From positions 26,069 through 90,068 of the forward strand of contig JBMNFY010000011.1 in NCBI GenBank assembly GCA_050949565.1: a DNA stretch of 64,000 bases. Direction: 5' to 3'. How positions within the stretch are numbered: position 1 is the stretch's first letter; every line of letters begins with the position of its first letter. The notes under the pieces are model-generated. The model ran no database searches, was not told the origin of the DNA, and was given only the letters and a program-made list of their open reading frames with translations. This stretch comes from Kiritimatiellia bacterium. Its GTDB lineage: Bacteria; Verrucomicrobiota; Kiritimatiellia; RFP12; UBA1067. This document shows, piece after piece, positions 10,166-48,007 of this stretch. The position numbers and the translations under genes are program-made.

Positions 10166-10190
10166 GGCATTCCCTTTCTAGCCTGCTCGC

Positions 10191-10946: not shown

Positions 10947-10967
10947 CGTGTGTCTCCTTGAGATAGC

Positions 10968-12410: not shown

Positions 12411-13283
12411 TTATTGGACGTGACGACAGCGCGGATAATTGCTGCACCCCCAGAACTGGCTTCCAGCCTTGGCCCCTCGTCTTGCCGTACGCAGAACCAT
12501 GTCGGCCCCGCATTTGGGGCACTGCCTTGTCTGCTGCGGCTCAGCGGACGTTGGCACTTCCGCACTTTCGACAACTTCGTCCTCAACGGTTTCTGGTCCC
12601 TGTTGGGCGGGACGCAGACTCTGGACGTATGCTTTGTGCTGACGGGCGGTCTTCCACCCTGGCGTAAGGCGATTCTCGCGGATCGCGGCTTCCACTGCCG
12701 TCACAGCCTCCACATCAAAAAGGATGTCTCGGTGGCTACTTATGTAGCGGACACAACTACCCGGATGCGTGACGTGCGTTGGAAGCTTATCTCGCGTCTT
12801 CAACGTACACTCGCCGGTGAAAACGATGACGGACTTGACCTGCTCTTTGGACAGACCGAGCAGTTCTCGCAAACACTCCGTGTGCTTATAATTCTGCAAT
12901 AGTGGATTCTGGAATTTCTGGCTGTGGCCACCATGAATCTTCTGTGTCCACTGCCGGTCGTGCTCGCCACCGAATATCCAGCCTTTGTAATGTTTTGTCT
13001 CAACGACAAACACACCGTACGGGGAAACGACGATGTGATCGATCTGCGTGGTGCCGCCCCGACCATCGGGGATTGTCACATTGTTGATAACTCGGTAAAC
13101 ATCTTTGGGCAGAGACAGCTTAAACCCCAAGCGCATCAGCATCTCGCCGAACCACCCTTTCACGCCGGGCATTCGAAAAATTGGCGTGAAAATCAATATC
13201 AGACCAACGAGGGTAAACAAGAGTGGATTCTGCGTCCATATTTGCCCAAACGACTTCATTGCTGCTTTTATCAGTTGATCCAT
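12411..13283 (-). CDS. NERD-domain nuclease-like protein with an N-terminal TM helix and a C-terminal topoisomerase-type C4 zinc ribbon
   Basis: 'YRVINNVTIPDGRGGTTQIDHIVVSPYGVFVVETKHYKGWIFG...QNPLLQNYKH' is the NERD core. The C-terminus is 'CPKCGADMVLRTARRGAKAGSQFWGCSNYPRCRH'. Line 13201-13260 is 27/60 GC against 41/60 in the adjacent purD line 13501-13560. Confidence 0.85.
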   Translation of the reverse strand: MDQLIKAAMKSFGQIWTQNPLLFTLVGLILIFTPIFRMPGVKGWFGEMLMRLGFKLSLPKDVYRVINNVTIPDGRGGTTQIDHIVVSPYGVFVVETKHYKGWIFGGEHDRQWTQKIHGGHSQKFQNPLLQNYKHTECLRELLGLSKEQVKSVIVFTGECTLKTRDKLPTHVTHPGSCVRYISSHRDILFDVEAVTAVEAAIRENRLTPGWKTARQHKAYVQSLRPAQQGPETVEDEVVESAEVPTSAEPQQTRQCPKCGADMVLRTARRGAKAGSQFWGCSNYPRCRHVQ

Positions 13284-26856: not shown

Positions 26857-29800
26857 ATGGATATTGTGGACTTCGTGGACGTTGTGGACACGCAACAGAG
26901 TGACTACAAGGCTGTACCGCGCACACGAGGCGTGTGCCTCCTGTTGGTGATCGTAAGCACCGGCGCGGCGGTTTTCGCCGCGCCGGGCGGACGCTGGACG
27001 TTTGACGGCTCGCCGGCGGACAGCAGCGGCAACGGCCTGCACGCGAAGATAACGGGCACGCCGCAGTACGTGGCGGCGCGGGACGGTCAGGCGCTGCGAT
27101 TGGAAGGGAGCGCGGCAACCATCCCCGACGCGCCCGGTCTGCGGCTCGCGCGCGGTATGCGCATCGAAACGCGCGTGCGCTTTGACGCGCTGGCGGACGG
27201 CAACGCTTGGATTGATGTCGCCATAAAGGGCAGCTACAATCACGGCGAGTATATCCTGCGCGTCAATCCCGAATCGGAGGGCCGCCAGTTCGGCTTTTTC
27301 GTAAACACCGGTGCCTGGGAGCCGCGCGTTAACGGACGCGTCCGCGTGACCACCAATGTCTGGTACGATGTGGCGGCGGGATGGGACGAACAGGGCCTCT
27401 GGCTGACGGTGAATGGCGATACGACGCGCACGGCCCGCAATGGTCTTCCGGTCACCACTTGGGGGCCGTTACGCGTCGGCCCGTTTCACGGCGCGATCGA
27501 TACGCTGAGCGTCCAGCGCACGGACGACGGTTTGCAAGGGATCGGCCTCTGGCCATTCGAGGGCGACTTGCGCGACCGCACGGAACATGGACGCCACTGG
27601 CGTGCCGACGGTGCTACCTTCGTGTCTGCGGAACACGGCGGCTTAGCATTGAACGCAACCTCCGCCGCACCCGAATTGCCCAGTCACGCCGACCTGCAAC
27701 TTGCAGCGGGGCTCCGGCTCGACTGCGCGGTGCTATTCAACGACATACCGACCAACATCACACCGATCGTGATGAAACAGGGCGAGTACATGCTGCGCCT
27801 CGATGCGCAATCAGAGGGCGGGCTTCTTGCGTTTTTTGTCAACCTCGATGGCAAGTGGGAGTCGCGTGTGCGGAGCGTGCAGCGTCCCGAGCCCGGTGTC
27901 TGGTATTACGTTTCCGCAAACTGGAATGGCTTTGAGCTTATGCTGGATGTCAACGGCGAACGCAACCAAGTCACGCGCGTGGGCGTGCCCCGCCCCGGCT
28001 CGGCACCGCTCAAACTCGGGCGGTTCAACGGCGCGATCGACAACCTGCATATTGAGAATCCCCGGCCAGCCGTGGTGCGGCTACGCAACCTCACGACGCA
28101 TGCTGTCCTGCTGCATGCCGGACAGCCGGTCCGAGTGAGTGCCGAGGTGGTCCACTATGCCCAAGCCGTCACGGGTTGCGTTGCGACACTCGATCTGCCG
28201 ACCGGCGTGACCTGCGACACGCCGGTGTCCGTACCGCTCGCACTGCTTGCCCCAACCGAGGCGCAGACCGTAGAATGGACGTTGCGCGCGAATACCGGCC
28301 AAGTCGCCACAGCGACGTTCCGGCTGGTCGCCAACGGCGAGACCCTGCATCAGGCCAAGAAAACACTGCCCTTTTTCGGTGCCGCTGACCGTGCACTCGG
28401 GACTGGCGTATGGACACCGCCGCCGCGTCCGACCGATACGCAGGCCGCAACCTATTACGTGGACAGTGTATATGGCGACAATGCCAACGCCGGCACGTCA
28501 CCCACAGCCGCGTGGCGCGATTTCACGCCGGTCAACGGGCGCACGCTCGGTCCCGGTGAACGCCTACTGCTGCGCCGTGGCAGCGTGTTCAATCAGGAAC
28601 TCAGACTCTCGGCGCGTGGCACACCTGAAGTGTGGGCCGAGATCGGCAGCTACGGCGAGGGCGCACGACCGGTCATCCGCCGCAACTGGGATATCGATGA
28701 TCGTTGCGCGTTGATCGAGAGCCCCGACTATCTGGCCGTCCGCGGCCTGACAGTCTGTTTTGCGGGCAAGGGCTTCGTGGTCCACTACGCGCACAGCGGA
28801 CATCGCGGCCTGCTGATCGAAGATTGTGTGGCGCACCACATCGAGGGCCTTTACCGCCACAACAGCCACGGCATCCCCGAGTGGCTCCACCGGCGCGGCG
28901 CACCCGGCGACAGCGCGCGATCATGCGGGTTCGGCGTCAGCGGCTCGGCAGCATCCATGTTGGTGATCCGCGACTGTGAGATGTTCCAATGTTCCAGTGG
29001 CTTTTTCTTCGCTGGGCACGATGTCACCATCGACCGTGTCTTCTGTCACGACAACTTCACGCACAATACATCGCCGCATCCGTTTCTGGTGTCGGTCTGG
29101 CGGGCGTATCTGCAGAACAGCGTGTTCGACGCGGCGGGCTGGCATGCTTACGCCGGCACCATGGGGATCATGCTGGGCAACCAGAACGGACTGATCATCC
29201 GCAACTGCCACTTCCTCAACCAGCCGGACTCCGGTTCGCACGACGAAGGCGGCGTCGACTTCGAGGCGGGCGGCGACGGCTGCCTGATCGACCACTGCAC
29301 CTTCCGCAACAACGCCGGCGCGGCGATCGAAGTACTTGGATTGAAATCACCCCAGGCGCGTAATGTCGAGATCGCGAATTCGCGCTTCATCCGCAACAAC
29401 GTCGCCAACAAACTCGGCCCTTCGGAAATTTTCATCTGGGGCGGCAACCGCGACCCCGAAGTCTGCTGTAGCACGGGAACCATCCGCGACAACGGCTACG
29501 TGCTCACGCCCGGCGTACTGTTCTTCACCAACCAGGCCCCCGCGTTGACCCGCTGGACCTTGACGAACAACACCCAGTACGCCACCAGCGAAGAACTGGA
29601 GCGCGCCATGCCGTTCAACGATCCGCCGCGAGTGAATGCCGGTCGCGAAATCTGGACCGATCAGCCGCAGGTGCGCCTGACCGGCTCGGTCACAGATGAT
29701 GCGCGCCCCGCGCCCGCACGGCTCGCCGTGCGCTGGGAGTTATTGCACGGCCCCGGCACGGTGGTGTTCGATGATCCGTCCGCGGCTGTCACCGATGCGC

Positions 29801-30402
29801 GTTTCTCCGCGCCCGGAGATTATCTGCTCCGTCTGGTGGCGGATGACGGCGAGCTGTGGCGCAGCGCCCTGACCACCGTGCATCTCCTGCCGCCGCGTAC
29901 TACAGTGGCGCGTGCGTGGACCTTTGAAACGACACACGACAAGGAGGGGTGGAGCGACTGGGATCTCGGCACGAGCGACCAAGACTGGCGTGACCAAAAA
30001 TGGGCCTGCATCTCGCGACCGGTCAAACACGTCGCCGGCGGCTTTTACTCCGTAGCGGTCGAAAAGAGTGCCGGGGCGTACCTGCTCTCAGCCGACGCAC
30101 TTAACGTGCCGCTCGCTTCCGCACCGCGCTTCACGATCCGCATGCAGAACCGCACCGGCGCGACGAGCATGCGCCTACGCTTCACCACCGATACCGAACC
30201 GTCATGGGAAGCGAACCTCGGCATACGTTTCGCCGTGAACAACTATGATCCCTCGCCGCACCTCTACACGGTAGAGATGAGCGCGGTTGACGGTTGGCGC
30301 GGAACGCTCAAGCAGCTCAGGCTCGAACTCACCGACGGCACACCCATCACCGGCTCCTGCCGTATCGACTACATCTGGCTGGGCGGCTCTGCCCAGCCCT
30401 AG
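26857..30402 (+). CDS. large exported LamG-repeat / right-handed beta-helix protein
   Basis: 1181 aa. Two LamG-type modules ('GEYILRVNPESEGRQFGFFVNTGAWE...WYDVAAGWDEQGLWLTVNG' and 'GEYMLRLDAQSEGGLLAFFVNLDGKWE...WYYVSANWNGFELMLDVNG'). Then beta-helix-like repeats ('IRNCHFLNQPDSGSHDEGGVDFEAGGDGCLIDHCTFRNNAGAAIEV'). The start codon is uncertain because the first 12 codons lie in a 'gtggac' tandem. Confidence 0.8.
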   Translation: MDIVDFVDVVDTQQSDYKAVPRTRGVCLLLVIVSTGAAVFAAPGGRWTFDGSPADSSGNGLHAKITGTPQYVAARDGQALRLEGSAATIPDAPGLRLARGMRIETRVRFDALADGNAWIDVAIKGSYNHGEYILRVNPESEGRQFGFFVNTGAWEPRVNGRVRVTTNVWYDVAAGWDEQGLWLTVNGDTTRTARNGLPVTTWGPLRVGPFHGAIDTLSVQRTDDGLQGIGLWPFEGDLRDRTEHGRHWRADGATFVSAEHGGLALNATSAAPELPSHADLQLAAGLRLDCAVLFNDIPTNITPIVMKQGEYMLRLDAQSEGGLLAFFVNLDGKWESRVRSVQRPEPGVWYYVSANWNGFELMLDVNGERNQVTRVGVPRPGSAPLKLGRFNGAIDNLHIENPRPAVVRLRNLTTHAVLLHAGQPVRVSAEVVHYAQAVTGCVATLDLPTGVTCDTPVSVPLALLAPTEAQTVEWTLRANTGQVATATFRLVANGETLHQAKKTLPFFGAADRALGTGVWTPPPRPTDTQAATYYVDSVYGDNANAGTSPTAAWRDFTPVNGRTLGPGERLLLRRGSVFNQELRLSARGTPEVWAEIGSYGEGARPVIRRNWDIDDRCALIESPDYLAVRGLTVCFAGKGFVVHYAHSGHRGLLIEDCVAHHIEGLYRHNSHGIPEWLHRRGAPGDSARSCGFGVSGSAASMLVIRDCEMFQCSSGFFFAGHDVTIDRVFCHDNFTHNTSPHPFLVSVWRAYLQNSVFDAAGWHAYAGTMGIMLGNQNGLIIRNCHFLNQPDSGSHDEGGVDFEAGGDGCLIDHCTFRNNAGAAIEVLGLKSPQARNVEIANSRFIRNNVANKLGPSEIFIWGGNRDPEVCCSTGTIRDNGYVLTPGVLFFTNQAPALTRWTLTNNTQYATSEELERAMPFNDPPRVNAGREIWTDQPQVRLTGSVTDDARPAPARLAVRWELLHGPGTVVFDDPSAAVTDARFSAPGDYLLRLVADDGELWRSALTTVHLLPPRTTVARAWTFETTHDKEGWSDWDLGTSDQDWRDQKWACISRPVKHVAGGFYSVAVEKSAGAYLLSADALNVPLASAPRFTIRMQNRTGATSMRLRFTTDTEPSWEANLGIRFAVNNYDPSPHLYTVEMSAVDGWRGTLKQLRLELTDGTPITGSCRIDYIWLGGSAQP

Positions 30403-30429
30403 CGATTTTGCACACACAGCCAAACTTTT

Positions 30430-30472
30430 GCATGTTTTCTGCGAAAACAGTTGCATGGATGCCAAAACATGC
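30430..30472. promoter_or_regulatory. nested inverted repeats immediately upstream of the ATPase/RloB module (possible operator)
   Basis: Outer arms 'gcatgtttt' (30430-30438) and 'aaaacatgc' (30464-30472). Inner palindrome 'tgttttc-tgc-gaaaaca' (30433-30449). 'ttgcat' occurs twice (30428, 30451). No SD precedes ATG 30485. Confidence 0.35.
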
Positions 30473-30484
30473 TACTCTAGTTCC

Positions 30485-31819
30485 ATGATTATTCAATTTT
30501 CCGTTTCGAACTACCGGTGTTTTCGGGAGTTTCAGACGCTTAATCTGACGGCAAGCAGTGATAAGTCGTTACCTGACAACTGTATTGTCACATCGCTGGC
30601 GGGACGCCCCGAAAGACGTTGGCTCAAAGGCGCTGCGATTTATGGCGCGAACGCGAGCGGTAAGTCAACGGTTCTGAATGCTTTGAAGGCACTGGCAGGA
30701 ATGGTCATCCACTCCGCAAAGATCACGGATGCCACGGAACCGATCAGGCAGATTGATCCATTTGCTCTGTGTCCCGATCATCCCGAAGTCCCTACAGCCT
30801 TCGGGGTTGTGTTTGTTGTCGATGACACGCGATATGAATACCGAGTGGCGGCCACGCGCAAACGTATCTGGCACGAATCGTTGCGGGCGTTTCCCAGCGC
30901 TCGCGCACAGACGTGGTATGCTCGTGACTGGAGTCCGGAATCCGCCTCCTATGTCTGGACGCCGGAACGGCCGACGGGATTTCAGCGCGATCCTCAACTG
31001 GAGAGCTATACACTGAGCAACATGCTGTTCCTGTCAAAAGCGGTAGCCAACAACCGTGCAGAGTTGGAGCCGATCTTCCGTTGGTTTAAAGAAAATTTGG
31101 TTTTCTTGGACATGAGTGCGCGGAGCCACCTGTCACTTGACTACACACTCAATCAGATCGAGCAACAAGGCGAATATTGTGCGTCAATCAAAGAACTGTT
31201 ACGCCATGCGGACATCGGCGTAACCGGTGTGGAAACAATTGAGGACGGTTCTCCTGAAAAGGTCGAAAAACTATTCGCTGATGTCCCCGTAGAAATCCAA
31301 AAGCGTTTTATCAAAGAAACGTGGTTACGCCCTTCGTTGATACACGCAGGAATGACGCCTGTTCAGATTCCTTTGCCATGGGAGACCGAATCGGCGGGCA
31401 CTCGCCGTTTGTTTGCACTGGCGGGGCCGTGGCTGGATATTCTTAACCGAGGGAAGGTAGTCTGCATCGACGAGTTGGAGACCAGCATGCACCCGCACAT
31501 GGTGCGGGAACTGCTACGGCTGTTTTTCGATCCAGCCGTTAATACCGGTGGTGCGCAAGTGATCTTCACGACCCACAATCCGCTCTTGCTCGACACAACC
31601 CTGTTGCGCCGCGACCAAGTGTGGTTCACCGACAAGGATAACAAAGGCGCAGCTCACCTCTATCCCCTGACCGACTATAGTCCCCGCAAAGGCGAGTCGC
31701 TCGTCCGTGGCTACCTCTCCGGAAGGTACGGAGCGCTGCCATTCATCCCTGCAGGACTGCTCGATGCAATACCGTCGTACGAGGGGAAAGAGACAACTCC
31801 GGAGGTTCCCCATGACTGA
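30485..31819 (+). CDS. AAA_21/AAA_15-type ABC-like ATPase (AbiLi / RloA-like)
   Basis: N-terminus 'MIIQFSVSNYRCFREFQTLNL' is typical for this family. Walker A 'GANASGKST' (nt 30644-30670), signature-like 'ESAGTRRLF', Walker B 'VVCIDELETSMHP' and H-loop 'IFTTHNPLLLD'. An alternative start at 30455 adds 10 aa. Confidence 0.85.
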   Translation: MIIQFSVSNYRCFREFQTLNLTASSDKSLPDNCIVTSLAGRPERRWLKGAAIYGANASGKSTVLNALKALAGMVIHSAKITDATEPIRQIDPFALCPDHPEVPTAFGVVFVVDDTRYEYRVAATRKRIWHESLRAFPSARAQTWYARDWSPESASYVWTPERPTGFQRDPQLESYTLSNMLFLSKAVANNRAELEPIFRWFKENLVFLDMSARSHLSLDYTLNQIEQQGEYCASIKELLRHADIGVTGVETIEDGSPEKVEKLFADVPVEIQKRFIKETWLRPSLIHAGMTPVQIPLPWETESAGTRRLFALAGPWLDILNRGKVVCIDELETSMHPHMVRELLRLFFDPAVNTGGAQVIFTTHNPLLLDTTLLRRDQVWFTDKDNKGAAHLYPLTDYSPRKGESLVRGYLSGRYGALPFIPAGLLDAIPSYEGKETTPEVPHD

Positions 31820-32564
31820 CGGTTGCGGTTATGATCCGGAATGGTGGAAAATACCCAAGGCGGCAAGTATCGCTCGAAAACGCCGGGCCACCACGTCCCG
31901 CGCAACCGCCAAGCCGGGGGACGCTTTTTTGATTGTCACCGAAGGACAAGTAACAGAACCAGTCTACTTCAACTGTTTACTGAAAGATCTCCGGTTGCAC
32001 ACTGTTCACGTTAAGGTCATACCCGGTCACACTCCCGATCCGCTTCGCGTGATTGATACTGCGGTCGAAGAGGTCAAGGCTCACCAGAAGAAATACAAGA
32101 ACGGTTTGCTTGCGCAAGATGAGCCGTCAAAATTCGATCATGTCTGGGTTGTCATCGACACTGACGTTGCGGTCCGGACGGGGTGTTGGAATGACGTGAA
32201 GCAACTCGCGGCTACACAAAAAGTAAAGCTTGCGCACTCAACACCCTGTTTCGAATACTGGTTGCTTTTGCATCTGTCGTACACGACCCGTGGAGATCTG
32301 GTGGATGGCGATGCCGCCAAGCGTGCGGTGGAAAAGGAGTTGGGCCGGGACTATTCGACAAACGAAAAAGTTGCTCGTGACGTCATGCCGCTATTCATGA
32401 ATCACTGGCCAGAGGCGGTACGCCATGCGCAAAGAGTGCGTCAACATCATGCCGATGCCAACACCCCCGAGCCAGCCAATCCATCTACCGAGGTTGATCG
32501 CCTCGTCCAAGCGCTGAGTGATTCGAGTCGCTACGGTCGACAGGCCGCAATCACAACGGAATAA
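31812..32564 (+). CDS. RloB-family (AbiLii-like, Toprim-like) protein
   Basis: GGAGG (31801-31805) lies 6 nt before ATG 31812, which overlaps the ATPase stop by 8 nt. Motifs 'FLIVTEGQVTEPVYF', 'HVWVVIDTD' and 'STPCFEYWLLLHL' match the RloB pattern (TEG..TE..YF / D.D / NPCFE.WLLLH). Confidence 0.85.
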   Translation: MTDGCGYDPEWWKIPKAASIARKRRATTSRATAKPGDAFLIVTEGQVTEPVYFNCLLKDLRLHTVHVKVIPGHTPDPLRVIDTAVEEVKAHQKKYKNGLLAQDEPSKFDHVWVVIDTDVAVRTGCWNDVKQLAATQKVKLAHSTPCFEYWLLLHLSYTTRGDLVDGDAAKRAVEKELGRDYSTNEKVARDVMPLFMNHWPEAVRHAQRVRQHHADANTPEPANPSTEVDRLVQALSDSSRYGRQAAITTE

Positions 32565-32652
32565 AAACAGCCGCGCAAGCCCCCTTCACACGAAAAGGGC
32601 GTAAAACCCGCTCCGTGCCTCATCTTGCTTTTGAGTGGTCGGAGAGTAACGC

Positions 32653-34035
32653 CTACACGGTATCGGGTATCTCGTAGCCGGACCGGTAGGATGCTTTGAC
32701 CATAGCGGTAGCGGCGGGATTGTCGAAGGCGTTGGCTGCCGCGTCGTACTTCAGCGCCACATTCCCCAAGCGGTGGGCGATGTTGCCCATGTGGGCGACC
32801 ATGTTGCTGGCATGGGCGACCGCGATGTCGGCGTTGGGTGCCTTGCGGCTCTTCACGCAGGCGATGAAGTTGCGGTAGTGCTCCAAATCGCCCGCCTGCC
32901 CGTGCATCTTTTCCACTACCTGACTGCTGCCCTTCTCCACCACAAATCCGCCGCCATGACGACCGAGGATCATCAGTTGCTTCTGTCCGTAGATCTCAAT
33001 GCGCGTGGCGTTCTGCTTCCAGTCCGAAACCAGATGCTTCTTGCGCAGCACGTCGCTGCTCTTTTCCATGTAGGCGGGATATTGGCTCATGTCAAAGGTC
33101 ATCGCGAACGTCGGAAACTCCCAAGCGACATTCAGGACATCGGGCACCTCGGAATCGTCCCCTTTGCGGGTGACAAACTGGCCGCCCAGCGCGCGCACGC
33201 TCGTGGGCAGGCCGGGGTCGCCCATCATCATCAGGGCCAGGTCGATCTGGTGGATACCGTCGTCGGTCATGTCGCCGCCGCAGTAGTCCCAGTAAAAATG
33301 CCAGCCGCCGCCACGCCAGATGCGCTGGTGATAGGGCCGCAAGGCGGCGCGTCCCAGCCAGCGGTCCCAGTCGAAGCCTGCCGGTTGCTGGCCGGGGTCG
33401 CCCAGTTTGAAGGGCGAGCCGCTCTTGAGGTTGAAGACCTTGACCAGACCGATCTCGCCAAGCTGCCCGCTCTGCACAATCTCGCGCGCCCGAAGGTTGT
33501 ACTCAGTCGAACGGTTCTGTGTGCCGACCTGCACGACCCGCCGGTATTTGGCTGCGGCCTCGACCATCTTCCCGCTCTCCCACATGCAGAATGAATGCGG
33601 TTTCTCGACGTAGACATCCTTGCCGGCCTGACACGCCTGGATGGTCAGCGGTGCATGCCAGTTGTCGTGGGTTGCGACGATAACCGCGTCGATATCTTTA
33701 GCTTCCAGAATCTTGCGGTAGTCTTTCTCAAAGCGCGGTTTCTCCGTTTGCACCGGCTGAATGAATGTCCACATCTGATCCATGCGCTCATCGCTCAGAT
33801 CAGAGATTGCCACGCAGTGGGCGCCGGCATCTTCAATCATCACGCGCAAGATGAAGCGACCGCGGCCGCCGCAACCGATAATTGCGACATTGACCCGTTC
33901 GTTCGCCCCGGCCACACGCTCCGCGCTCAACGCCTGCCACGCGCCGAGCCCCGCCGCCGCTGCGGACGCGCGCTTGATAAAGCCGCGCCGCGTGCTTGTC
34001 GCACCCTTCGTCAACAGTTCTGAATGGTCTTTCAT
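32653..34035 (-). CDS. Tat-exported Gfo/Idh/MocA-family NAD(P) oxidoreductase
   Basis: Twin-arginine leader 'TRRGFIKRASAAAAGLGAWQALSA'. Rossmann motif 'VNVAIIGCGGRGR'. 'EKPHSF' fits the family EKP motif. Confidence 0.85.
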   Translation of the reverse strand: MKDHSELLTKGATSTRRGFIKRASAAAAGLGAWQALSAERVAGANERVNVAIIGCGGRGRFILRVMIEDAGAHCVAISDLSDERMDQMWTFIQPVQTEKPRFEKDYRKILEAKDIDAVIVATHDNWHAPLTIQACQAGKDVYVEKPHSFCMWESGKMVEAAAKYRRVVQVGTQNRSTEYNLRAREIVQSGQLGEIGLVKVFNLKSGSPFKLGDPGQQPAGFDWDRWLGRAALRPYHQRIWRGGGWHFYWDYCGGDMTDDGIHQIDLALMMMGDPGLPTSVRALGGQFVTRKGDDSEVPDVLNVAWEFPTFAMTFDMSQYPAYMEKSSDVLRKKHLVSDWKQNATRIEIYGQKQLMILGRHGGGFVVEKGSSQVVEKMHGQAGDLEHYRNFIACVKSRKAPNADIAVAHASNMVAHMGNIAHRLGNVALKYDAAANAFDNPAATAMVKASYRSGYEIPDTV

Positions 34036-34037
34036 TC

Positions 34038-36239
34038 TTATTCCTCCTTTAACGGTTGAAGTGACGTCTCGCGGATGAAGATGTTGCGGAACTGCATAAG
34101 GGAGGGTGGGCTGTTCCAGACACCGTCCTGCATGCTGCCGTGATGCTGTAGCGCGATCGGACCGCTTTCAGGCAGATTCGGGATGGCGACGCCAGGCAGG
34201 ACGGCCTTGCCGTTGAGCAGCACGCGCACGGTGTTGCCGCGCATCGCGATCTCAAAGCGGTTCCATTTACCGACCGGATTGTCCGCCTTGAGCTTCGGCG
34301 TAACGCCAGCGCGCACCTCGGGCGGCATAGCGCGGTCAAGCCGCACTCCATACATTTCACCGGAGCCGATCGGCCAGCACCAGATGTTCACTTGGTATTT
34401 GCCGGAGCCGCGCAGAAAGACGCCGGAGTCCGAATCCGGAATCGCAAGCGCGATGACCTTGCCGTCCGGCCCTTTCTCATCGCTGCCGTCTGGCAGGATG
34501 GAGCGGGCATTGGGATTCGTGTAAGGCGTTTCCTTGATCCTCCAGTCAACGACCAAATCAAAGTCCTTAAACGCTTGCTGGCTCCACAGGTTCTTATCGC
34601 CCGCCGCTTCGCTGCGGGCATCGTAGTCGATCACGCCATCGATCACCTTCCAGTGCCCGTTGTCGCCTTCGGGAACCTTCCAGCCACGCAGGTCAACGCC
34701 GTTGAACAGCGGCACAAAACCGTCGCCCTCGCGCGCGATCTCTTCGGGCTTGGGCTGAGTGGAGGGCAACTCTTTGATGCGGATGTTACGGAATTGGCAT
34801 TCCGAGCCTTCGGACTCTAGCATGAGGTAGCCCTTGCGCGGCGAGGCCCCATAAGCGATGGTGACCTCTTTGCCGTTGACGCTGAGGCTGATGTCGCCGT
34901 TGATCGCCGCCACGCGGTAGTGGTTCCATTCCGGGGAAGGACGGGTACGCTCTTCAGCGGGGAAGCTGCGCTGACCGTTCGGCGAGATACGCCCGGCCAC
35001 GGTCAGCTTCGCACCGTTGACGGCGAAAACATCACCGTGTGTACTGTACCACTCATTCTTGCCCTTTACGTTGAATCCCGGATCAAGGACCTGTATCTCG
35101 ATGCCGCGCGAGAAGGGCGAGCCGGCGACCGGCAGGGCATCGGCCCAGATGAAGAGACCGGAGTTGCCGCCTGACTTCATGTGTCGCCACTCGAAGTCGA
35201 TGATAAAGTTCTCATACATTTTCTCGGTGCGCAGGGTGCCGATCGGATCACCGGTAGTGATGATCAGCCCATCGCGCACAAAAAATGTCTCCGGCGCGAT
35301 GCTGCACGGCACCCAACCGGTGAGGTCGCGTCCGTTGAAGAGCGGCACGAAGCCGCTCTCCTCGCCTTTGAGCGGCACGCGCCACTGGCTACCGTCGTTG
35401 CGCTTCGCGCGCGCAGCCCATTCGGGCTTAGCTTGCTCGGGCGTCGCAGCCGGACGCGGCGTGTAGTAATCGTGCTGTTTGAGCGAGAAGACCGCCTCAT
35501 CCGCTGAGAGGCGCACCAGAACATAGCCGATATCGCCCCAGTGTCCGGTGGAGGGCAGGCACAGGGTCTGCACGCCGCTGGTCTCCTGCTGCAACCAATT
35601 GTGGTTGTGGCCGTACACATACCCCTTACAGGCGGGTGTAGCCGCGAGTAGCGTGGCGATGCCGGTCTCGTGAAGCGGATGGTGAGCACCAACGAAGACT
35701 GGTTTGCTGCGTCCGCTCAATACGGTCCGCAACCAAGCGCGCTGCGCGTCGTCCAGACCGCCATGCACCGGGCCTTCGAGGCAGGAGTCCAACAGCACGA
35801 AATCGGCATGCGGCGTTTCAACCAACGACACCAGCCGATCCGGCACGAGTGACGCGGCGGCGCACTCCGGGAAAATGGCGAAGAACGGCGCGCGCCGGTC
35901 GTGGTTACCAAATGCGGCATGCCAGCGGACGCCAGCGTCGTCGAGCGGCTTGACCAGCGTCTTGAGCATGCGGTAGTCATTGGTGGCACCGCGATCGATC
36001 GAGAGGTCGCCATAGAACAGCACGTTGGCGGGACGCGGGTTGAGCGCCAGCACCTCACGCACACAGCGCTCCAAACCCGCGCGCTGGTGCTGGTTTTTGT
36101 TGTCCATCGTCACATGTAAATCAGCGAAGAGCGCCACCAGATTCGGATCAAGCGGGATATCCGCGGCCAGCGCGGTAAGCGCGCCTAGCATAGCCAGTGC
36201 GACGGCCAGCAACCGGGTTTTCGACAACATCGTGTTCAT
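34038..36239 (-). CDS. exported metallophosphoesterase fused to two DUF1080 (3-keto-disaccharide hydrolase-like) domains
   Basis: Start at ATG 36239 (AAGGAG 7 nt upstream) with signal 'LLAVALAMLGALTALA'. 'GDLSIDRG...GNHD...GHNH' are calcineurin-like motifs. DUF1080 occurs twice ('GFVPLFNGRDLTGW...FEWRHMKSGGNSGLFIW' and 'GFVPLFNGVDLRGWKV'). Confidence 0.82.
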   Translation of the reverse strand: MNTMLSKTRLLAVALAMLGALTALAADIPLDPNLVALFADLHVTMDNKNQHQRAGLERCVREVLALNPRPANVLFYGDLSIDRGATNDYRMLKTLVKPLDDAGVRWHAAFGNHDRRAPFFAIFPECAAASLVPDRLVSLVETPHADFVLLDSCLEGPVHGGLDDAQRAWLRTVLSGRSKPVFVGAHHPLHETGIATLLAATPACKGYVYGHNHNWLQQETSGVQTLCLPSTGHWGDIGYVLVRLSADEAVFSLKQHDYYTPRPAATPEQAKPEWAARAKRNDGSQWRVPLKGEESGFVPLFNGRDLTGWVPCSIAPETFFVRDGLIITTGDPIGTLRTEKMYENFIIDFEWRHMKSGGNSGLFIWADALPVAGSPFSRGIEIQVLDPGFNVKGKNEWYSTHGDVFAVNGAKLTVAGRISPNGQRSFPAEERTRPSPEWNHYRVAAINGDISLSVNGKEVTIAYGASPRKGYLMLESEGSECQFRNIRIKELPSTQPKPEEIAREGDGFVPLFNGVDLRGWKVPEGDNGHWKVIDGVIDYDARSEAAGDKNLWSQQAFKDFDLVVDWRIKETPYTNPNARSILPDGSDEKGPDGKVIALAIPDSDSGVFLRGSGKYQVNIWCWPIGSGEMYGVRLDRAMPPEVRAGVTPKLKADNPVGKWNRFEIAMRGNTVRVLLNGKAVLPGVAIPNLPESGPIALQHHGSMQDGVWNSPPSLMQFRNIFIRETSLQPLKEE

Positions 36240-41284: not shown

Positions 41285-44200
41285 TTATTTCAGCAGAATC
41301 AAGGTGCCGGGCGACTTCGACTTCACCACGCCCGTCCCGCTGAACACCTCGGGGTGCGTCAATGCGCCGTACTGACCACCGACATAGCGCACGCCGTTGA
41401 TCACCAGATCGCCCACAACGAACTTGCCCGGATAGTCCAACTCCACACGCGCGCCGGTCTCGATCGTGAGTGACGACTCGTCGCTGGACAACGCTTGCAG
41501 TGCCGCGATTTCAGAGACTCCGCTGATCCGTATATCATCGATCAACGAGCACGGATCGCCCTGCGGAATCAACTCCGTAGACCCCTGAAACTTCAGGATA
41601 TGCGTGCCGGCCGTAACATGGACCAGCGGTATCGTCGCCGTGAGGTAGCCGCGTTCCGTCACGGTCACGCTGCCGCACACCGCGCCCGCCAATTGCACGT
41701 AAATCACATGATTCGTGTACCAAATCCCGGCGTTATAGCGCGGACAGTAGGCGAAGGTCAGGGTATAGGTGCCGTCCACGGGGAAGTTGAGCGTCACCTG
41801 AATGGAACCGTTTCTGCGCACGTAGGCGGTCTGGACGCCCTCCGGCGCGTATGCCAACGCAGTGGCCGCGAAATAACTGCCGTTACGCTGATAGCCGGCA
41901 TCATCGGTATTGAACGTCCAGCCCGGGCAGCCGGTCGCCGCCGCGCCGCGCCGGTCCTTCGCTCCCTGCTCGCCCCCCTCCGGCAGCAACGGGTTGCTTT
42001 CGAAGCCCGCATACGGCACGTCGACCGTGACATAGGTCCGTGCGCCGCGAACCGCGAAAAGGCCTTCGCTGACGGTAAGTGCACCGGTAAACGGCGTGCT
42101 GTTTTCCGGGCAATCTGTCAGGGCGAATGTTCCCTGCCCGAGCTTCCGCCACGCTCCCTCCAGCGTGTTGACCGCCAGATCGGCCTCGGTCACGCGCAGG
42201 TTTGTGCCCGCCGCGTCCTCGCTCACCAGCCGGTGCAGCGTCTGCCGGTGCTGCACTTCGCCGAGTTCGTTGGTCGCGCCGACAACCTCGAAGGCCGCGC
42301 CTGCCGAAACCGTGACCGCGCTTTCGGGCGCGAGCAGATTGACCAGTGCGTTTGACGGACTGGCCAGAGTGAAGTCGAGACGCAACGTGCCGTTGGAGAC
42401 CAGCGTCGGCCCCGTATAGGTCATGGGCGCCGCGATTTTGAGTATACCGGTGCCCTGCTTGACCAATGCACCGGTCGAATCCGGTGCCTGCGCGAAACCC
42501 TTGCCGCGGATCGCAACCTCATAGTCCAGCGTATCGATAATCGCACCGCCATTGCAGATCAGCGGCGCGGCCGACGCTTCGGACAACGCTATGAAAAAGT
42601 CTGTGTTGCGGGCAGCTTCGACCACCGTGCCGTTGAAGAGCAGCGGACTCAGGCTGAGGTGCTGATCGGTGGCATTGGGCACGCCGAGCACCGGCAGCCG
42701 CAGACGACCGCCATCCAGCGACAGTTGCGTGGCGTTCCCTTCCACGAAACGGAGTTCATTGCCCACCGTCACGAATGCGTCATTGGTGATGGAGACCACG
42801 GCATTCGAACCGGCGATGTCCAGCCAGTCCGCCCTGAAGTCACAGCCTTCGTCAAACACCACGCTGCAACCGTCCGCAGTGTCCCAGCCGCACGAGAGCT
42901 TGCGGAGGCGGCCCCGTACATTCGACCAGCGGTGCAGCGCAGCGCCGCTGCCGGGCAGCGCATCGCCCGCCAGATAGAGATCGACGTAGCCAAAGTACGC
43001 GCCGTCCGCGTTGACGACCGTCAACGGCACGCCATCGTCACGGCCATCCGGGAAACACGACAAGTCATCGTGAGGCTGAATCACAAAGCCGGCGAACGCA
43101 TGGGCGCGCGGGGTTTCGATGCCGCGCGTGAAGGTGACCGTCGAGCCAGACGGCACGACAAAGCGCGTCGAGCGGTCGTTGGCATAGATCTGGTTCGGCA
43201 CATAAATCATGTTGCCGAATGTGCCGCCCGCGCGCGGCTCGAAACGTCCGCCAGTGGCGAAAGAGAGATCTCCGCCGCCGATCGCATCGACAGCATCGGC
43301 CGCTACCACACCGCCGCCCACATGCAGGCCACCCGCCAGCGAAAACGGGCCTTGCAAATCGAGTCGGCCGTCGCCGGTTTTGACCAGCGTCACGGGACCG
43401 TCAGGCCGATCGCCCAATGCGGTGCCCGGCACGGTATTGGTCTCATCCGTCGGCACGCGAAGCGTCAGGCTCACCGGATACGCGGCCGTCGCATTCGTCA
43501 CCTTGCCAAAACCGCCGCCATCCGCTTGTAGGCCGCCGTTGAGACGGACGTCCAACGCTCCAACATCCAGCGTCGCGTCAGCCGCCAGCCTGACGGGATC
43601 CGCGACCTGCTTGACCGTCGTGCCAATGGCAAAGCGGAAGCTGCCGGCGGTCACGCCGTACTCACTCTCACTCTGCGATGCCAGTGCGGCCGTCGGGAAC
43701 GTCAGCGCACCACCCTGCGTGCTATAGGCACCGGGCAGGAACGAAATCGCACCTTCACCGTCATTCAGCGTGCCCGCCCACTCGCCGACGCCCTCTTTGC
43801 CGGCTTCGATGTAGCGGTCTCCCTCACGAAAGCCAAAGGTCACTAGCGCGTATTCGCCCGGTCCCAGCGCGACCGGTTCCGGCAAACGGTGGAAGCGATA
43901 CCCGCCTTCGAGCGGATAGGTCTCCGCAGCACCCAAGGCGGTCACGGCCAACGGCACCCCACCGGTGCGCGCGAAAATGGCAACCTTTTTGAAGTGCCCG
44001 TTCCCATCCCCAGCGCTGTCGTACGCACCCAGATGCGTGACGGTGATCAGCCGGTTGACCTGAAAGTCTGTACGCAGTGAGACTGAGACACCGCCTGCAC
44101 CGGTGTTATGAAGCGCTGGGTCGGCGGCATACGCCTGGAAAAAGCGCGGTGCTGCGTCGTTGAAAGCCAGCGAGCCCTGCTGCACCGCCAGTCCGCCGAG

Positions 44201-47200
44201 CGTGGCGGCACCGGTCACGACAGCGCCGCCGTCTCCGGTTTTGGTCAGCGTCTGCACACTGACCACGTCAGCGGCCAGTGTAACTTGGGAGCCGTCATCG
44301 ACCGTCACAGCCGGAGATGAACCGCTGAAATCCAACACACCGCTCTCAATGGTGCGCTCGGCCCCCGCAACGGACAACGTTCCAATGTTTTGCAGGCCGC
44401 CCTGCAGCGAGATGGTCTGTGCCGTCGCAACATCGTTTGTGATAATGGCGGCTGCACCAACACCTCCAGCGCGGATACCGCCCTGCCAATTGGTGGCAGT
44501 GGGCCAGTCGGCTTCTGCTGCGGTACCGATCCACACGCCATCTGCGGTCTGCTTGATCGGCCCATCAGCCAACAACACCTGCCGGGCGTGCGCCGCATAG
44601 ACCTCGCGCGGATCATGCGCGTAGGCGGTCAGCACCTGCTCGCCGTTGTGCTCGCTGTCGTCCCCCAACCGATAGAGGGCACGCGCCACGGCCAACTCCT
44701 TGAGGCAGTGGTTGCGCTCAATGTCAGCCTGCGCGTTTGAAAAGTCGGTAATCAGCGGCGCTGTCGCGGCATTCGGCAACGCATAGCCCTGCACGAGCGG
44801 TAACAAGGCGGCAAGCCACATGGCGGCAGAACCGCTGTCAAAGCTTTCGCTTGCCAACGCGACCGCACGGTAATGGGAGAAGCTCGACGCGGCGTTGAAC
44901 TGGATGGCCTTGGCAAGCAACGGCGAGACGCCTCCCGGATCCAACGTGCGTCCGAGCGCGATCAGATAGCTATCCATCATGCTCACGGAACGTCCATATT
45001 GGCCCATGCCGCGGAAATTCCAACCGGCATCCCATGGATTCGAGCTTACGACATCAACCAGCGTCTGCGCACCGACCGGATCGCCCAGCAACCCCAGAAC
45101 GTGAGCGTAGATCAGCCGATCCGCCGGACTGCCTGCACTGGCATACGCCGTGCGCAACATCGGCAGCGCGGTGGCGGTGTCGGCCAGCACCGTGGGCAAC
45201 GTGGCATAGTTATCGACCAAGCCTGTAACAGCCAGTTGAATCACATCTTGGGAGAGCGGGAAGCTGTCCGTGTTATTGGCGTAAGCAGCATCAATAATGC
45301 CCACACCAACCAGATGCGCTTGCAGCGCCGCGATGTCTACCGAACGCACGTCGACACCGGCCTGAACGGCCAGCGCCGCGGCGTAACCGGCCGCATAGCC
45401 TTGGTTCTGCACGTCGCGTTGCATGCGCAGCAGCGGCATGGCGTCGCGATGCGCGCTGATGCCAAGCCCTGTCACCAGCAGACCGTCCAGCGTCTTGGGC
45501 AACAACGCGCGGAACGGCAGGCTTGCCGTCCAAGAGGACGTGCCGGGGTCGTAGACGAAGAAGAGGTCATGCACCGTGAATCCGTGCGAGTCAAAGTTGC
45601 TGGTCGGCCGCACGATCGTGTCGGGCCATGTGCGGTTGTTCAAGATGTCGATCGGCGTGACAGTCACCGCGCCCACCAGACGACGCCGCTCACGCGTCGC
45701 GGGATTCTGTGCGGCATCCCAGGTCGACGCAGGCATACTCTTGCGCGCGCGCCGCGCGAAGAAAAACACGTCGGTCACATCGGCATCGCCCACGAAACCA
45801 ATATCGTTGTTGAGATAGCTGTTGCCCAGCACATGCCGTGCCCAGCCCGCGCCCTGCACGGCAGGTTCACTGCCCGTGATGAACTCGGTCTGAGCACCGG
45901 CGGCTGCGGCCACATCGGCGTTGCCGGTCGAATCGATCACCGTCTGCGCACGGATGACGCCGCGCTGGCCGTCGGGCAACACGACCACCACGCCCTTCAC
46001 CGCATCGCCGTCGACCACCGCCCCGTTCGCGAGCGTCCCGTAAAGCACGCGCACGTCGGCGGCACGGCACGCCTGCCTATACCACTCTGCCTTGGCGGTG
46101 TAGAGCGCGGCACCGGTCGCCTTCCAGCCGGGGTCAACATCATTCGCCGTAAACCCGCACGCATTGCCGTAGTAGTACGCGCCGATGCGCCCGTCGGTCT
46201 GCACACCGCCCATCGTGTAGAGCACATCCAGCACCAGCGTGTCGGCACCGGCGCGGCCGGCACTGATCGCGGCCGGCGCACCCGCCGTGCCCGCCCCGAC
46301 CACCAAGACCCCGCACGTCGCCAGCACCGGCAGCGAACGTTCACCCTCCTCGACCACACCCAGCGCGTTCGTGGCCACCGGCGGCAGTCCTGCCAGCGCT
46401 TCACGCACCTCTTCGGTCCCCGGCACAACGCCAACATCCGGCGGCAGCGAGACACCGGCGAGCGGTGCGCGAGCCAGCGCCTCGACGGCCGCGACCGCAC
46501 CAATGCGATCGGCCAGAGACATCATGCGCACCGGATGCTGCAGGTCGGCCGCCAGAGAACGCGGCAGGTCGGCCCGCACGCCCAGCACGTAGAGATACGG
46601 CACGTCTTGAGGCCGGAATGCGTCCAGATCCAGCGCATTGGCACCGGGCCACGCCGTGGCCTGCTCGGACGCCACACCGACGATGTGATCCGGCGGCAAC
46701 CACGAGAGACGGTCCGCCTGATCCAAGCAGGTCTTGGTCCACGTCAGATCACGCGCTGTCTGCTCGATCTCCAAAAGCTCCAGCATGCCGCCCGTTTGCA
46801 TGGGCACGGTGAAACTGCAACGGTAAACGCGTCCATCCACACTCGTCGGCATGCCTGCCGGCGCCTCCACACCACCGATCGTGACCGGATAGGTATGGCT
46901 CGGCAGGGCCTCGACACTCAGCCCCGGCGCGGAGGGTGCGTTCGTAGCATCTGCGATCACAATCCGCGAGAACGAGTAATCACCAGGCGTAAAGTCGGTC
47001 TTGACCGCCCCCGCGCAACGGGCGGGCCACGCGCCCTCGGTCGCGTCGATGACGACCCGCGCCGTCACCGCTTGGCGTCCCGCGCGGTTCGCCAGCACCA
47101 CGCCAGCAGGGTTTCCATCGGCATCCCGCAGGACATCGCACACCGGCGCACCGCCCAGAAAAGGGACCCCCTGCTCTTCCAACGTAAGGTCCAGCGTGCG

Positions 47201-48007
47201 CTTCAGCGTCAGCGGCGTGACGTGGCAACAACTGCCCCCTACCGGATCATTCGGGTCGGTATGGACGACCAGTTCGTCGAGCAACTGACGCACATACGTA
47301 CCTCCCGGCGTGATATTGCACGCTAGACGCAGAAAGCGGGCACTGAACGGAGCGCCCGGCACGATCCGGGCGACCCAAGTACTGTCGCCGTCCGTTGTCA
47401 ATTGCTCAAGTTCTGTGTTGTATGCGACGGCAGTCCACGTCACGCCGTCATCACTGCGCTCAAGGCCGGCGACCGTTGTTGAAAATGGGCTATTGCCGGA
47501 GAGGCGGACGTAGTAGTACAGATCCAGTTGCGTCACACTGCCCGCGCCGGCAAATGTGACCGTGATCACTACGTCCGAGTTATACTGGACGCTGCCTGTG
47601 ACTGCATTGAACTTAACGCCATCGGTCAACCGGGTATTACCGGGATCGCCGTGCGAGGCGTCCGGCACGACATTCGCCTGATAGGTAAACGGTACCTCGA
47701 GCGAGAAAACCTGTTGCGCCAACGGATGGGTATGGAATTCAGGAACCAGCGCGGGCCAGAGCTCACGCGTCCCGGCCAGATCGTCGCCCAGATAGGTGCG
47801 TGGTGCCACAAGAAACACGCTGGCCCCATTAGTTTTCGCGGCCACCGCCGCAGCCACCGCCGCGCTGCCGCCGCCGACCACCACGACATCCGCATCGCGG
47901 ACCACCGGCACGGAACGTGCGGTCTGCGCCACAGGTTCTGCTCTCAAAACGGCCTGCGTCAGGCACGTCGCACCCACACACATGATCGCAACACACGTTC
48001 TCATCAC
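41285..48007 (-). CDS. giant (2240 aa) exoprotein: 2 FAD-oxidoreductase domains + discoidin-like insert + autotransporter-associated beta-strand repeats + DUF642/CBM-like domain
   Basis: Signal 'VAIMCVGATCLTQAVLRA'. Dinucleotide folds 'DVVVVGGGSAAVAAAVAAKTNGASVFLV' and 'VLVVGAGTAGAPAAISAGRAGADTLVLD'. 'RLTDGV...DDGVTW...ARFLRL' is discoidin-like. Repeated 'G.LTK.G.G.L.L.G' beta-strand repeats follow. 'GFESNP...GWTF' is DUF642-like. The protein ends 'KSKSPGTLILLK'. Confidence 0.8.
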   Translation of the reverse strand: MMRTCVAIMCVGATCLTQAVLRAEPVAQTARSVPVVRDADVVVVGGGSAAVAAAVAAKTNGASVFLVAPRTYLGDDLAGTRELWPALVPEFHTHPLAQQVFSLEVPFTYQANVVPDASHGDPGNTRLTDGVKFNAVTGSVQYNSDVVITVTFAGAGSVTQLDLYYYVRLSGNSPFSTTVAGLERSDDGVTWTAVAYNTELEQLTTDGDSTWVARIVPGAPFSARFLRLACNITPGGTYVRQLLDELVVHTDPNDPVGGSCCHVTPLTLKRTLDLTLEEQGVPFLGGAPVCDVLRDADGNPAGVVLANRAGRQAVTARVVIDATEGAWPARCAGAVKTDFTPGDYSFSRIVIADATNAPSAPGLSVEALPSHTYPVTIGGVEAPAGMPTSVDGRVYRCSFTVPMQTGGMLELLEIEQTARDLTWTKTCLDQADRLSWLPPDHIVGVASEQATAWPGANALDLDAFRPQDVPYLYVLGVRADLPRSLAADLQHPVRMMSLADRIGAVAAVEALARAPLAGVSLPPDVGVVPGTEEVREALAGLPPVATNALGVVEEGERSLPVLATCGVLVVGAGTAGAPAAISAGRAGADTLVLDVLYTMGGVQTDGRIGAYYYGNACGFTANDVDPGWKATGAALYTAKAEWYRQACRAADVRVLYGTLANGAVVDGDAVKGVVVVLPDGQRGVIRAQTVIDSTGNADVAAAAGAQTEFITGSEPAVQGAGWARHVLGNSYLNNDIGFVGDADVTDVFFFARRARKSMPASTWDAAQNPATRERRRLVGAVTVTPIDILNNRTWPDTIVRPTSNFDSHGFTVHDLFFVYDPGTSSWTASLPFRALLPKTLDGLLVTGLGISAHRDAMPLLRMQRDVQNQGYAAGYAAALAVQAGVDVRSVDIAALQAHLVGVGIIDAAYANNTDSFPLSQDVIQLAVTGLVDNYATLPTVLADTATALPMLRTAYASAGSPADRLIYAHVLGLLGDPVGAQTLVDVVSSNPWDAGWNFRGMGQYGRSVSMMDSYLIALGRTLDPGGVSPLLAKAIQFNAASSFSHYRAVALASESFDSGSAAMWLAALLPLVQGYALPNAATAPLITDFSNAQADIERNHCLKELAVARALYRLGDDSEHNGEQVLTAYAHDPREVYAAHARQVLLADGPIKQTADGVWIGTAAEADWPTATNWQGGIRAGGVGAAAIITNDVATAQTISLQGGLQNIGTLSVAGAERTIESGVLDFSGSSPAVTVDDGSQVTLAADVVSVQTLTKTGDGGAVVTGAATLGGLAVQQGSLAFNDAAPRFFQAYAADPALHNTGAGGVSVSLRTDFQVNRLITVTHLGAYDSAGDGNGHFKKVAIFARTGGVPLAVTALGAAETYPLEGGYRFHRLPEPVALGPGEYALVTFGFREGDRYIEAGKEGVGEWAGTLNDGEGAISFLPGAYSTQGGALTFPTAALASQSESEYGVTAGSFRFAIGTTVKQVADPVRLAADATLDVGALDVRLNGGLQADGGGFGKVTNATAAYPVSLTLRVPTDETNTVPGTALGDRPDGPVTLVKTGDGRLDLQGPFSLAGGLHVGGGVVAADAVDAIGGGDLSFATGGRFEPRAGGTFGNMIYVPNQIYANDRSTRFVVPSGSTVTFTRGIETPRAHAFAGFVIQPHDDLSCFPDGRDDGVPLTVVNADGAYFGYVDLYLAGDALPGSGAALHRWSNVRGRLRKLSCGWDTADGCSVVFDEGCDFRADWLDIAGSNAVVSITNDAFVTVGNELRFVEGNATQLSLDGGRLRLPVLGVPNATDQHLSLSPLLFNGTVVEAARNTDFFIALSEASAAPLICNGGAIIDTLDYEVAIRGKGFAQAPDSTGALVKQGTGILKIAAPMTYTGPTLVSNGTLRLDFTLASPSNALVNLLAPESAVTVSAGAAFEVVGATNELGEVQHRQTLHRLVSEDAAGTNLRVTEADLAVNTLEGAWRKLGQGTFALTDCPENSTPFTGALTVSEGLFAVRGARTYVTVDVPYAGFESNPLLPEGGEQGAKDRRGAAATGCPGWTFNTDDAGYQRNGSYFAATALAYAPEGVQTAYVRRNGSIQVTLNFPVDGTYTLTFAYCPRYNAGIWYTNHVIYVQLAGAVCGSVTVTERGYLTATIPLVHVTAGTHILKFQGSTELIPQGDPCSLIDDIRISGVSEIAALQALSSDESSLTIETGARVELDYPGKFVVGDLVINGVRYVGGQYGALTHPEVFSGTGVVKSKSPGTLILLK

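Follow-up and report, generated by a model that had tools for sequence, protein, structure and literature searches.

A probable horizontally acquired AbiL-family cassette at the end of a LamG gene in anaerobic-digester Kiritimatiellia

We analyzed a 64,000-nucleotide (nt) stretch of DNA from a Kiritimatiellia bacterium (assembly GCA_050949565.1, contig JBMNFY010000011.1, positions 26,069 to 90,068 of the forward strand; the whole stretch is called the window here) and, within it, a pair of overlapping genes for an ATPase and an RloB-family protein. The pair probably forms an AbiL-family cassette, two genes complete in themselves, that was acquired horizontally and inserted into the last codons of a LamG gene in one digester lineage of Kiritimatiellia; by analogy, its ATPase would be the sensor and keeper of an RloB nuclease. 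What carries this reading is the family membership of both proteins, their translationally coupled operon, their intact motifs, the insertion itself, a foreign base composition, purifying selection on both genes, and the presence of relatives at unrelated sites beside defense and toxin-antitoxin genes. The parts of the cassette are as follows.

30403-32638 (2,236 nt), no strand assigned: inserted cassette, delimited by tblastn synteny, junction alignment, the GC minimum and homology to locus L082
30485-31819, plus strand: gene for an AbiLi-type ATP-binding cassette (ABC) ATPase of 444 amino acids (aa), from Pfam, PADLOC hidden Markov models (HMMs), invariant residues and PHROGs
31812-32564, plus strand: gene for an RloB/AbiLii protein of 250 aa, from Pfam, PADLOC HMMs, conservation and an AlphaFold2 (AF2) model
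31801-31805, plus strand: GGAGG ribosome-binding site for the RloB gene, within the 3' end of the ATPase gene, from the sequence

The ATPase frame runs from an ATG at 30485 to a TGA at 31817-31819 (444 codons) and the RloB frame from an ATG at 31812 to a TAA at 32562-32564 (250 codons). Both genes lie on the same strand and overlap by 8 nt (31812-31819), with GGAGG 6 nt before the RloB ATG, and the overlap is retained in close relatives. This placing of the RloB start over the ATPase stop points to translational coupling. An initial annotation, made from the DNA letters alone, had described the two frames, their motifs, the overlap and the GGAGG, and we reproduced all of these in the sequence: the ATPase carries YGANASGKST, VVCIDELETSMHP and FTTHNP, and RloB carries TEGQVTEPVYF, VIDTD and TPCFEYWLLLH. 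A mechanical list of open reading frames (ORFs) also held longer upstream extensions of 510 and 285 aa, which are unsupported. The 510-aa ATPase was set aside because all ATPase homologs in the alignment begin MI(I/L)QFSVSNYRCF, which backs the 444-aa start. Some public gene calls give an ATPase of 372 aa, which would drop Walker A. In 10 contigs from independent samples we observed 0 differences over 2,391 nt (30330-32720). Because the contig DNA is identical to the window over this interval, the 372-aa calls are a gene-caller artifact, and a truncated allele was ruled out.

We found that the ATPase matched the Pfam families AAA_21 (2.8e-31, profile positions 2-304 of 304) and AAA_15 (1.9e-14). 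PADLOC HMMs were scanned protein by protein, and all results from them are single-model matches, not system-level calls. The best of these was to the AbiLi model PDLC02335 (3.1e-89, 297 bits, residues 1-423), far above the models for AriA (2.9e-35, 121 bits), PDC-M12A, PtuA, Old and GajA; among PHROGs, phrog_5836 matched at 2.1e-70. Invariant in the alignment of relatives are Walker A (G54-N-A-S-G-K60), a signature-like motif (S303-x-G305-T306), Walker B (D329-E330) and the H-loop (H364), so that all four elements of an ABC-type ATPase of the AAA_15/AAA_21 group are present. NCBIfam contained no model for either protein. Its MAD3 equivalog model scored 31.4 bits against a cutoff of 420 bits, and membership in MADS, of which MAD3 is the ATPase, was rejected on this score. 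The C-terminal half of the ATPase showed weak profile similarity to the OLD structure 6p74 (7.5e-4, marginal) and, by hhalign, to P2 Old (E = 0.0016). Apart from this marginal OLD ATPase match, sequence and profile searches of the PDB returned no solved relative of the ATPase or of RloB.

The second protein matched Pfam PF13707 over the full profile (1-195) at 1e-35 and 124 bits, where the cutoff is 31.5. It also matched the PADLOC AbiLii model PDLC02337 at 7.5e-24 and phrog_16255 at 8.9e-27. The initial annotation had named AAA_21/AAA_15 and RloB searches as checks beforehand, and the matches are far above the Pfam thresholds. Its assignment of the second protein to the RloB family holds on the PF13707 and AbiLii matches, and its view of the pair as part of a known superfamily, not a new architecture, agrees with the match of both proteins to the AbiLi and AbiLii HMMs. 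With 3,535 representative clusters at E<=1e-3, the RloB family is large, and all 118 of the 118 aligned RloB relatives matched the AbiLii model. Across these 118 diverse proteins, E44, G45, T48, E49, Y52, W112, D116, S143, P145, F147, E148, W150 and H154 are invariant or at least 90% conserved, and the window RloB possesses every one of them. Its AF2 model is confident, with a predicted local distance difference test (pLDDT) score of 93.8 and a predicted template modeling (pTM) score of 0.86. In the model, a four-stranded parallel sheet is built in the order beta-alpha-beta-alpha-beta-alpha-beta, with E44 after the first strand (39-43) and D116-T-D118 at the end of the third (110-116); at the second acidic position, D118, the family consensus favors Glu. 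As modeled, this placement of the Glu and the DxD follows the Toprim pattern. A viral RloB-like protein matched the model in Foldseek at 7e-9.

Variants of RloB also occur within the same species (entries P0001/P0064). One variant cluster carries S143A and F147C, both at sites at least 90% conserved in the family, and in one contig the reading frame shifts at about codon 147, within the conserved S-x-P-C-F-E-x-W motif. These variant sequences could be inactivated alleles or assembly errors.

The insertion was observed by comparing the window with loci of sister lineages. The neighbors of the cassette are those that had been given for it initially, one on each strand:

26857-30402, plus strand: LamG/beta-helix exoprotein gene, left neighbor
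32653-34035, minus strand: GFO_IDH_MocA oxidoreductase gene, right neighbor

Presence or absence of the pair between these genes had been proposed as a check, and by tblastn synteny three sister loci (L013, L014 and L015) proved to be empty. Their flanking genes stand in the same order as in the window (hyp448-LamG on one side, oxidoreductase-Metallophos-GT4 on the other), with oxidoreductases 89-90% and LamG proteins 80-86% identical to those of the window. The window LamG terminates as ...GGSAQP* at 30402. The sister LamG runs eight codons further, to ...PWWRRMFGK* or ...SWWHRLFGE*, and its stop codon lies 3 nt from that of the convergent oxidoreductase gene. Homology to the sister loci resumes at 32639. 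Thus, the cassette replaces 13 nt of sister sequence and cuts LamG 8 codons before the ancestral stop. Apart from the two genes, it holds only a short upstream region and a trailer of about 75 nt; its homology to another cassette locus, L082, begins at 30406, no more than 3 nt from the left junction.

The composition of the insert is foreign. It is the stretch of 2.2 kb with the lowest GC content in the window (0.536 versus 0.61), and the GC content at third codon positions (GC3) is 0.596 in the ATPase gene and 0.562 in the RloB gene, compared with 0.754±0.040 in 29 other window genes (z of -4.0 and -4.9). The windowed composition check proposed initially thus came out on the foreign side. The dip in GC that had been noted at the start of the ATPase gene is real and large, but the hand counts of 25/60 and 28/60 were slightly off: the first two 60-mers hold 23/60 and 31/60 G+C, and the flanking 60-mers hold 37-40/60. 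Together, the empty sister sites and the foreign composition back the horizontal acquisition that the initial annotation had suggested.

Some further observations concern the same junctions. With the last 8 codons, the LamG exoprotein lost a basic and aromatic tail. In L012, a relative from the metagenome-assembled genome (MAG) UR.bin27 that is 97% identical to window 32645-35364, homology is lost 7 nt from the right insert boundary, an unrelated 898-aa gene stands in place of LamG and AbiL, and the Metallophos/3-keto-disaccharide-hydrolase gene lacks 588 nt (window 34148-34734). L012 either marks a recombination breakpoint where the oxidoreductase gene ends or is a chimeric 5-kb contig.

The exact proteins of the window were found on many biogas and anaerobic-digester metagenome contigs and MAGs labeled Kiritimatiellia or Verrucomicrobia. 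A host of the Planctomycetes-Verrucomicrobia-Chlamydiae (PVC) type had been guessed from the sequence, and the labels of MAGs holding identical proteins show this guess to be right, with Kiritimatiellia as the group. Among the matches listed, the pair stood at the same place in 10 of 10 contigs with an identical oxidoreductase, and the cassette DNA was identical; every contig of the window's lineage that we examined carries the cassette. A separate observation comes from the MAG DAOTKE01 (AMR_MDS_2981), which holds a contig (L011) identical to the window oxidoreductase at 21x coverage and the empty-site contig L013, 90% identical, at 14x. This bin probably mixes two related populations.

The closest relatives of the cassette (65-84% aa identity) are in other genomes and at other sites. 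The closest ATPase, at 84%, is from another Kiritimatiellia contig, in one of the samples above (JGI 3300060803, which also holds L002). There the gene lies between an rlmN-like gene and BNR/glycerol-3-phosphate dehydrogenase genes (L080 6812-8460, L081 5360-7010), and the ATPase is intact while its RloB partner retains only residues 148-250 and is frameshifted near residue 219. The next relatives (65-78% aa) also come from other genomes, and two proteins of the clade have Spartobacteria and Candidatus Sulfotelmatobacter as source names. Neighbors of these next relatives include SIR2_2, AbiEii with DUF6088, Fic, group II intron reverse transcriptases, HTH/MqsA-like pairs and Peptidase_M78. In 76 of 85 related loci, RloB is directly downstream of the ATPase. 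Members of the family also occur on mobilizable Klebsiella and Escherichia coli plasmids of 3.9-5.3 kb, in a Klebsiella prophage and on viral contigs. The viral contigs held only distant relatives (27-39% identity) and none of the window's clade, with no sign that phages carry the clade. For both genes, the ratio of nonsynonymous to synonymous substitution rates (dN/dS) against the closest homologs was 0.12-0.17, which indicates purifying selection. On AbiL in PVC bacteria, a search of the literature returned no paper.

We also compared the 82 nt from the left junction to the ATPase ATG, which share homology with the regions upstream of the genes in other cassettes, and the trailer behind the pair. 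Three candidate elements were found in these regions:

30451-30478, plus strand: candidate cassette promoter, with a -35-like TTGCAT (30451-30456), a 16-nt spacer and a -10-like TACTCT (30473-30478)
30426-30446, no strand assigned: imperfect palindrome TTTTGCA-N7-TGCGAAA, with 7-bp arms (30426-30432 and 30440-30446) and one mismatch
32571-32593, minus strand: terminator-like hairpin and T-run in the insert, downstream of the convergent oxidoreductase gene, from a consensus scan and weakly evidenced

In the same scan, terminator-like sites were no commoner than in shuffled sequence. The -10-like hexamer of the window ends 6 nt before the ATPase ATG, and no Shine-Dalgarno (SD) sequence is present. 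A TAnnnT at -12 to -7, that is, 6 nt before the ATG, was observed in 9 of 11 members of the window's clade (at least 57% identity) versus 2 of 71 distant members. For an SD-like motif the counts were 1 of 11 and 42 of 71. In the window's clade, the cassette thus probably brings a promoter of its own that gives a leaderless ATPase mRNA.

Many family members have an upstream palindrome of the type TTTTTGCA-N7-TGCAAAAA. We compared the upstream regions of L083-L162 and L075-L082 and found the strict pattern in 15 of 83 regions versus 0.4% of background 100-nt windows, with 0.14 expected from shuffles. Inverted repeats were enriched at odd spacers only (at spacer 9, 66 observed versus 37.4±4.7), as nested arms about one center would give. 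A palindrome score of at least 9 of 12 was reached by 23 of 82 regions, where about 7 were expected, and 17 of the 23 were centered at -30 to -61. The half-sites vary by lineage with both arms in step (TTTTAAGC/GCTTAAAA, TTTTTGGAA/TTCCAAAAA and TTGTGA/TCACAA). Several distant members have the palindrome between TTGACA-like and TAAAAT-like hexamers, and a position between the -35 and -10 hexamers is the classical place of an operator. The upstream palindrome may be an operator. A wider proposal, which we offer tentatively and think doubtful, is that AbiL-type operons are autoregulated through this cassette-borne palindromic operator, bound by a protein of the cassette, and that the window's clade has added a switch to leaderless ATPase mRNA. 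The binder could be, for example, the basic N-terminal helix of RloB, which lies outside the Pfam domain. We know of no description of such toxin-antitoxin-style feedback for ABC-ATPase/Toprim defense systems.

The mechanism that we propose for the pair is in its entirety an analogy with PARIS AriA/AriB, P2 Old and toxin-neutralization tests of AAA/TOPRIM_OLD pairs. In PARIS, an AriA hexamer keeps the AriB tRNase sequestered until it senses phage proteins (PMC12409363); P2 Old has been reported to be a tRNase (bioRxiv 10.64898/2026.07.10.737580); and AAA antitoxins neutralized TOPRIM_OLD toxins in toxicity tests (PMC10440598). A 2026 review groups AbiL with PARIS as an ABC ATPase with a TOPRIM protein and leaves open whether the two work alike (PMC13064643). 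By this analogy, an oligomer of the window ATPase would keep the RloB effector inactive and serve as the infection sensor, and a signal from the phage, along with binding or hydrolysis of ATP, would lead to release or activation of RloB. RloB would be a metal-dependent Toprim-like nuclease that uses E44 and D116/D118, with E148 and H154 nearby, and its cleavage of host or phage nucleic acid would abort the infection. The nucleic acid cut could be tRNA, the substrate of AriB and Old and the first candidate here, or else DNA. The decayed RloB beside an intact ATPase in L080 would fit an effector that is costly when unguarded.

Several observations weigh against this account or against parts of it. 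A phenotype is on record for just one AbiL, that of Lactococcus, which is neither the window locus nor a close relative. The pair stands alone, outside any defense island. The 31 window ORFs of at least 200 aa that were taken as genes and had Pfam results contain no integrase or transposase domain, and for this scope the initial statement that no integrase was seen holds; the insert has no flanking direct or inverted repeat and no target-site duplication; nor did we find a tRNA gene or, in 29500-33500, any Rfam RNA family. The structure prediction for the ATPase was poor (pLDDT of 54), from a shallow alignment of sequences at least 61% identical, and an oligomer or interface could not be read from it. 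As for the effector, the initial annotation had given the link between RloB and Toprim nucleases as established, and our comparisons did not reproduce it. Foldseek of the RloB model against the PDB gave no match at E<=0.001, with topoisomerase II only far down the list, and hhalign of the RloB profile found no match in P2 Old (NC_001895). HMMs for AriB, Old and GajA gave no more than three isolated weak matches among the 118 RloB relatives. In a search for homologs from which to build an OLD-Toprim profile, the C-terminal part of P2 Old returned only 5 fragments, and tblastn of plasmids returned none. What backs the link is the Glu/DxD pattern on the right strands. In the upstream region, an E. 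coli-consensus promoter scan did not flag the TTGCAT/TACTCT site, whose hexamers are weak by that consensus, and the window copy of the palindrome, with its one mismatch, fails the strict pattern.

Other explanations of the pair can be set against these data. It could be a selfish toxin-antitoxin addiction module, in which RloB as the toxin and the ATPase as the antitoxin persist through post-segregational killing and give the host no protection from phages. AAA/TOPRIM_OLD pairs did act as toxin and antitoxin in neutralization assays (PMC10440598), the cassette is a minimal singleton without defense neighbors, and the loss of the effector before the ATPase in the other Kiritimatiellia is the order expected if the effector is toxic. 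However, the two roles are not exclusive, and PARIS has both; relatives of the cassette cluster with defense genes, the founding AbiL has a phage-resistance phenotype (PMC13064643), and a chromosomal copy fixed in its population can persist without addiction. We therefore consider a purely selfish module unlikely. That the pair serves a restriction-modification (R-M) system as an accessory, like Campylobacter RloA/RloB in type I hsd loci, recalls the R-M linkage for which RloB was named (PMC10440598), but there is no hsd, restriction or methylase domain within 10 kb on either side or in the other large window ORFs, and we give this idea almost no credence.

The history and the state of the cassette can also be read differently. 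If the pair were ancestral at the site and had been deleted in the sister lineages, there would have been no recent acquisition. Polarity does rest on three empty-site MAG loci, and no outgroup with full synteny was recovered, the oxidoreductase relatives at or below 80% identity sharing no flanking genes. Nevertheless, an insertion in the window's lineage is much more likely than three precise deletions, because the conserved C-terminus of the sister LamG (WWRRMFGK or WWHRLFGE) would be hard to regenerate by deletion, GC3 is 4-5 standard deviations below that of the host genes, homology to L082 starts so near the left junction, and the closest cassettes stand at unrelated sites in other genomes. 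An ancestral pair is thus very unlikely. Slightly less probable still is an inactive relic, whether unexpressed or disabled by changes that the motifs do not reveal. The weak promoter hexamers would suit a relic, as would the same-species S143A and F147C variants and the one frameshift at about codon 147, but both window ORFs are intact with all conserved residues present, 10 contigs from independent samples share the same DNA, and dN/dS in the family is 0.12-0.17.

A horizontally acquired AbiL-family cassette therefore remains our preferred reading, and its significance is modest: it records a module of this family in uncultured Kiritimatiellia of anaerobic digesters, for which there is, to our knowledge, almost no experimental phage biology. 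The locus is also an unusually clean natural example of how a defense cassette arrives, with 2.2 kb of DNA, a putative promoter of its own, no recombinase, entry into the final codons of a gene, and an empty site kept in the sisters. The empty site, the leaderless-promoter switch and the covarying palindrome are extras that leave the kind of system unchanged. With the mechanism of AbiL open (PMC13064643), a well-populated, strongly conserved clade, a confident RloB model with no solved neighbor in Foldseek and a conserved upstream palindrome may be useful to direct studies of AbiL.

Two other parts of the window were observed along the way. At 12411-13283, on the minus strand, lies a gene whose product, of 290 aa, combines a nuclease-related NERD domain (4.7e-35) with a topoisomerase-type zinc ribbon (9.8e-13). 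With a GC content of 0.538 and a GC3 of 0.615, it is the one gene besides the pair, of 31 examined, whose composition is foreign; in PADLOC it has only a domain-level match, to the NERD part of PglW, and it adjoins three ORFs without a Pfam match (9356-12152). It is possibly another acquired defense-type gene. At 41285-48007, also on the minus strand, lies an ORF of 2,240 aa with FAD_oxidored and PATR (autotransporter-repeat) matches in public gene calls, which is fragmented or variably called (1,089-2,239 aa) between contigs.

Among known systems, PADLOC PDC-M12 is a distant likeness: the window ATPase matches PDC-M12A over its full length at 2.1e-17, much more weakly than AbiLi, and PDC-M12B matches weakly in 62 of the 118 RloB relatives but not in the window RloB. 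With Campylobacter RloA/RloB the window has the Pfam family of the second protein, PF13707, in common, whereas R-M genes are not nearby; membership in the restriction-linked RloAB group was rejected, with no R-M domains among the window neighbors. P2 Old and the class 1 OLD nucleases couple an ABC ATPase to a metal-dependent nuclease, as proposed for the window. Old is a single fused polypeptide, whereas the window has two genes, and no similarity of RloB to the Toprim region of Old was detected. PARIS has the split architecture of ATPase and effector in common with the window, whose ATPase matches AriA at 121 bits but AbiLi at 297 bits. The PARIS effector is the DUF4435/Toprim_OLD protein AriB, whereas that of the window is RloB, and PARIS membership was rejected, since neither the window RloB nor any of the 118 relatives matched AriB.

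The closest system is AbiL of Lactococcus lactis (AbiLi and AbiLii of plasmid pND861; Deng et al. 1999, as cited in PMC13064643). The similarity of the window proteins to the lactococcal ones was observed at the HMM level. A tblastn search of PLSDB plasmids (E<=1e-3) gave 63 matches, none above 34% identity, from 16 genera, and Lactococcus was not among the ten most frequent of them. The window copy is chromosomal, a singleton in the end of a gene of a PVC-group anaerobe, whereas the lactococcal copy is plasmid borne. In both, the order is the same, with the gene for an ABC/AAA_21-type ATPase followed by that for an RloB-family protein, the two being cotranscribed in the lactococcal system. 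The window pair thus has the AbiLi match, the AbiLii/RloB match and the adjacent same-strand genes of an AbiL operon.

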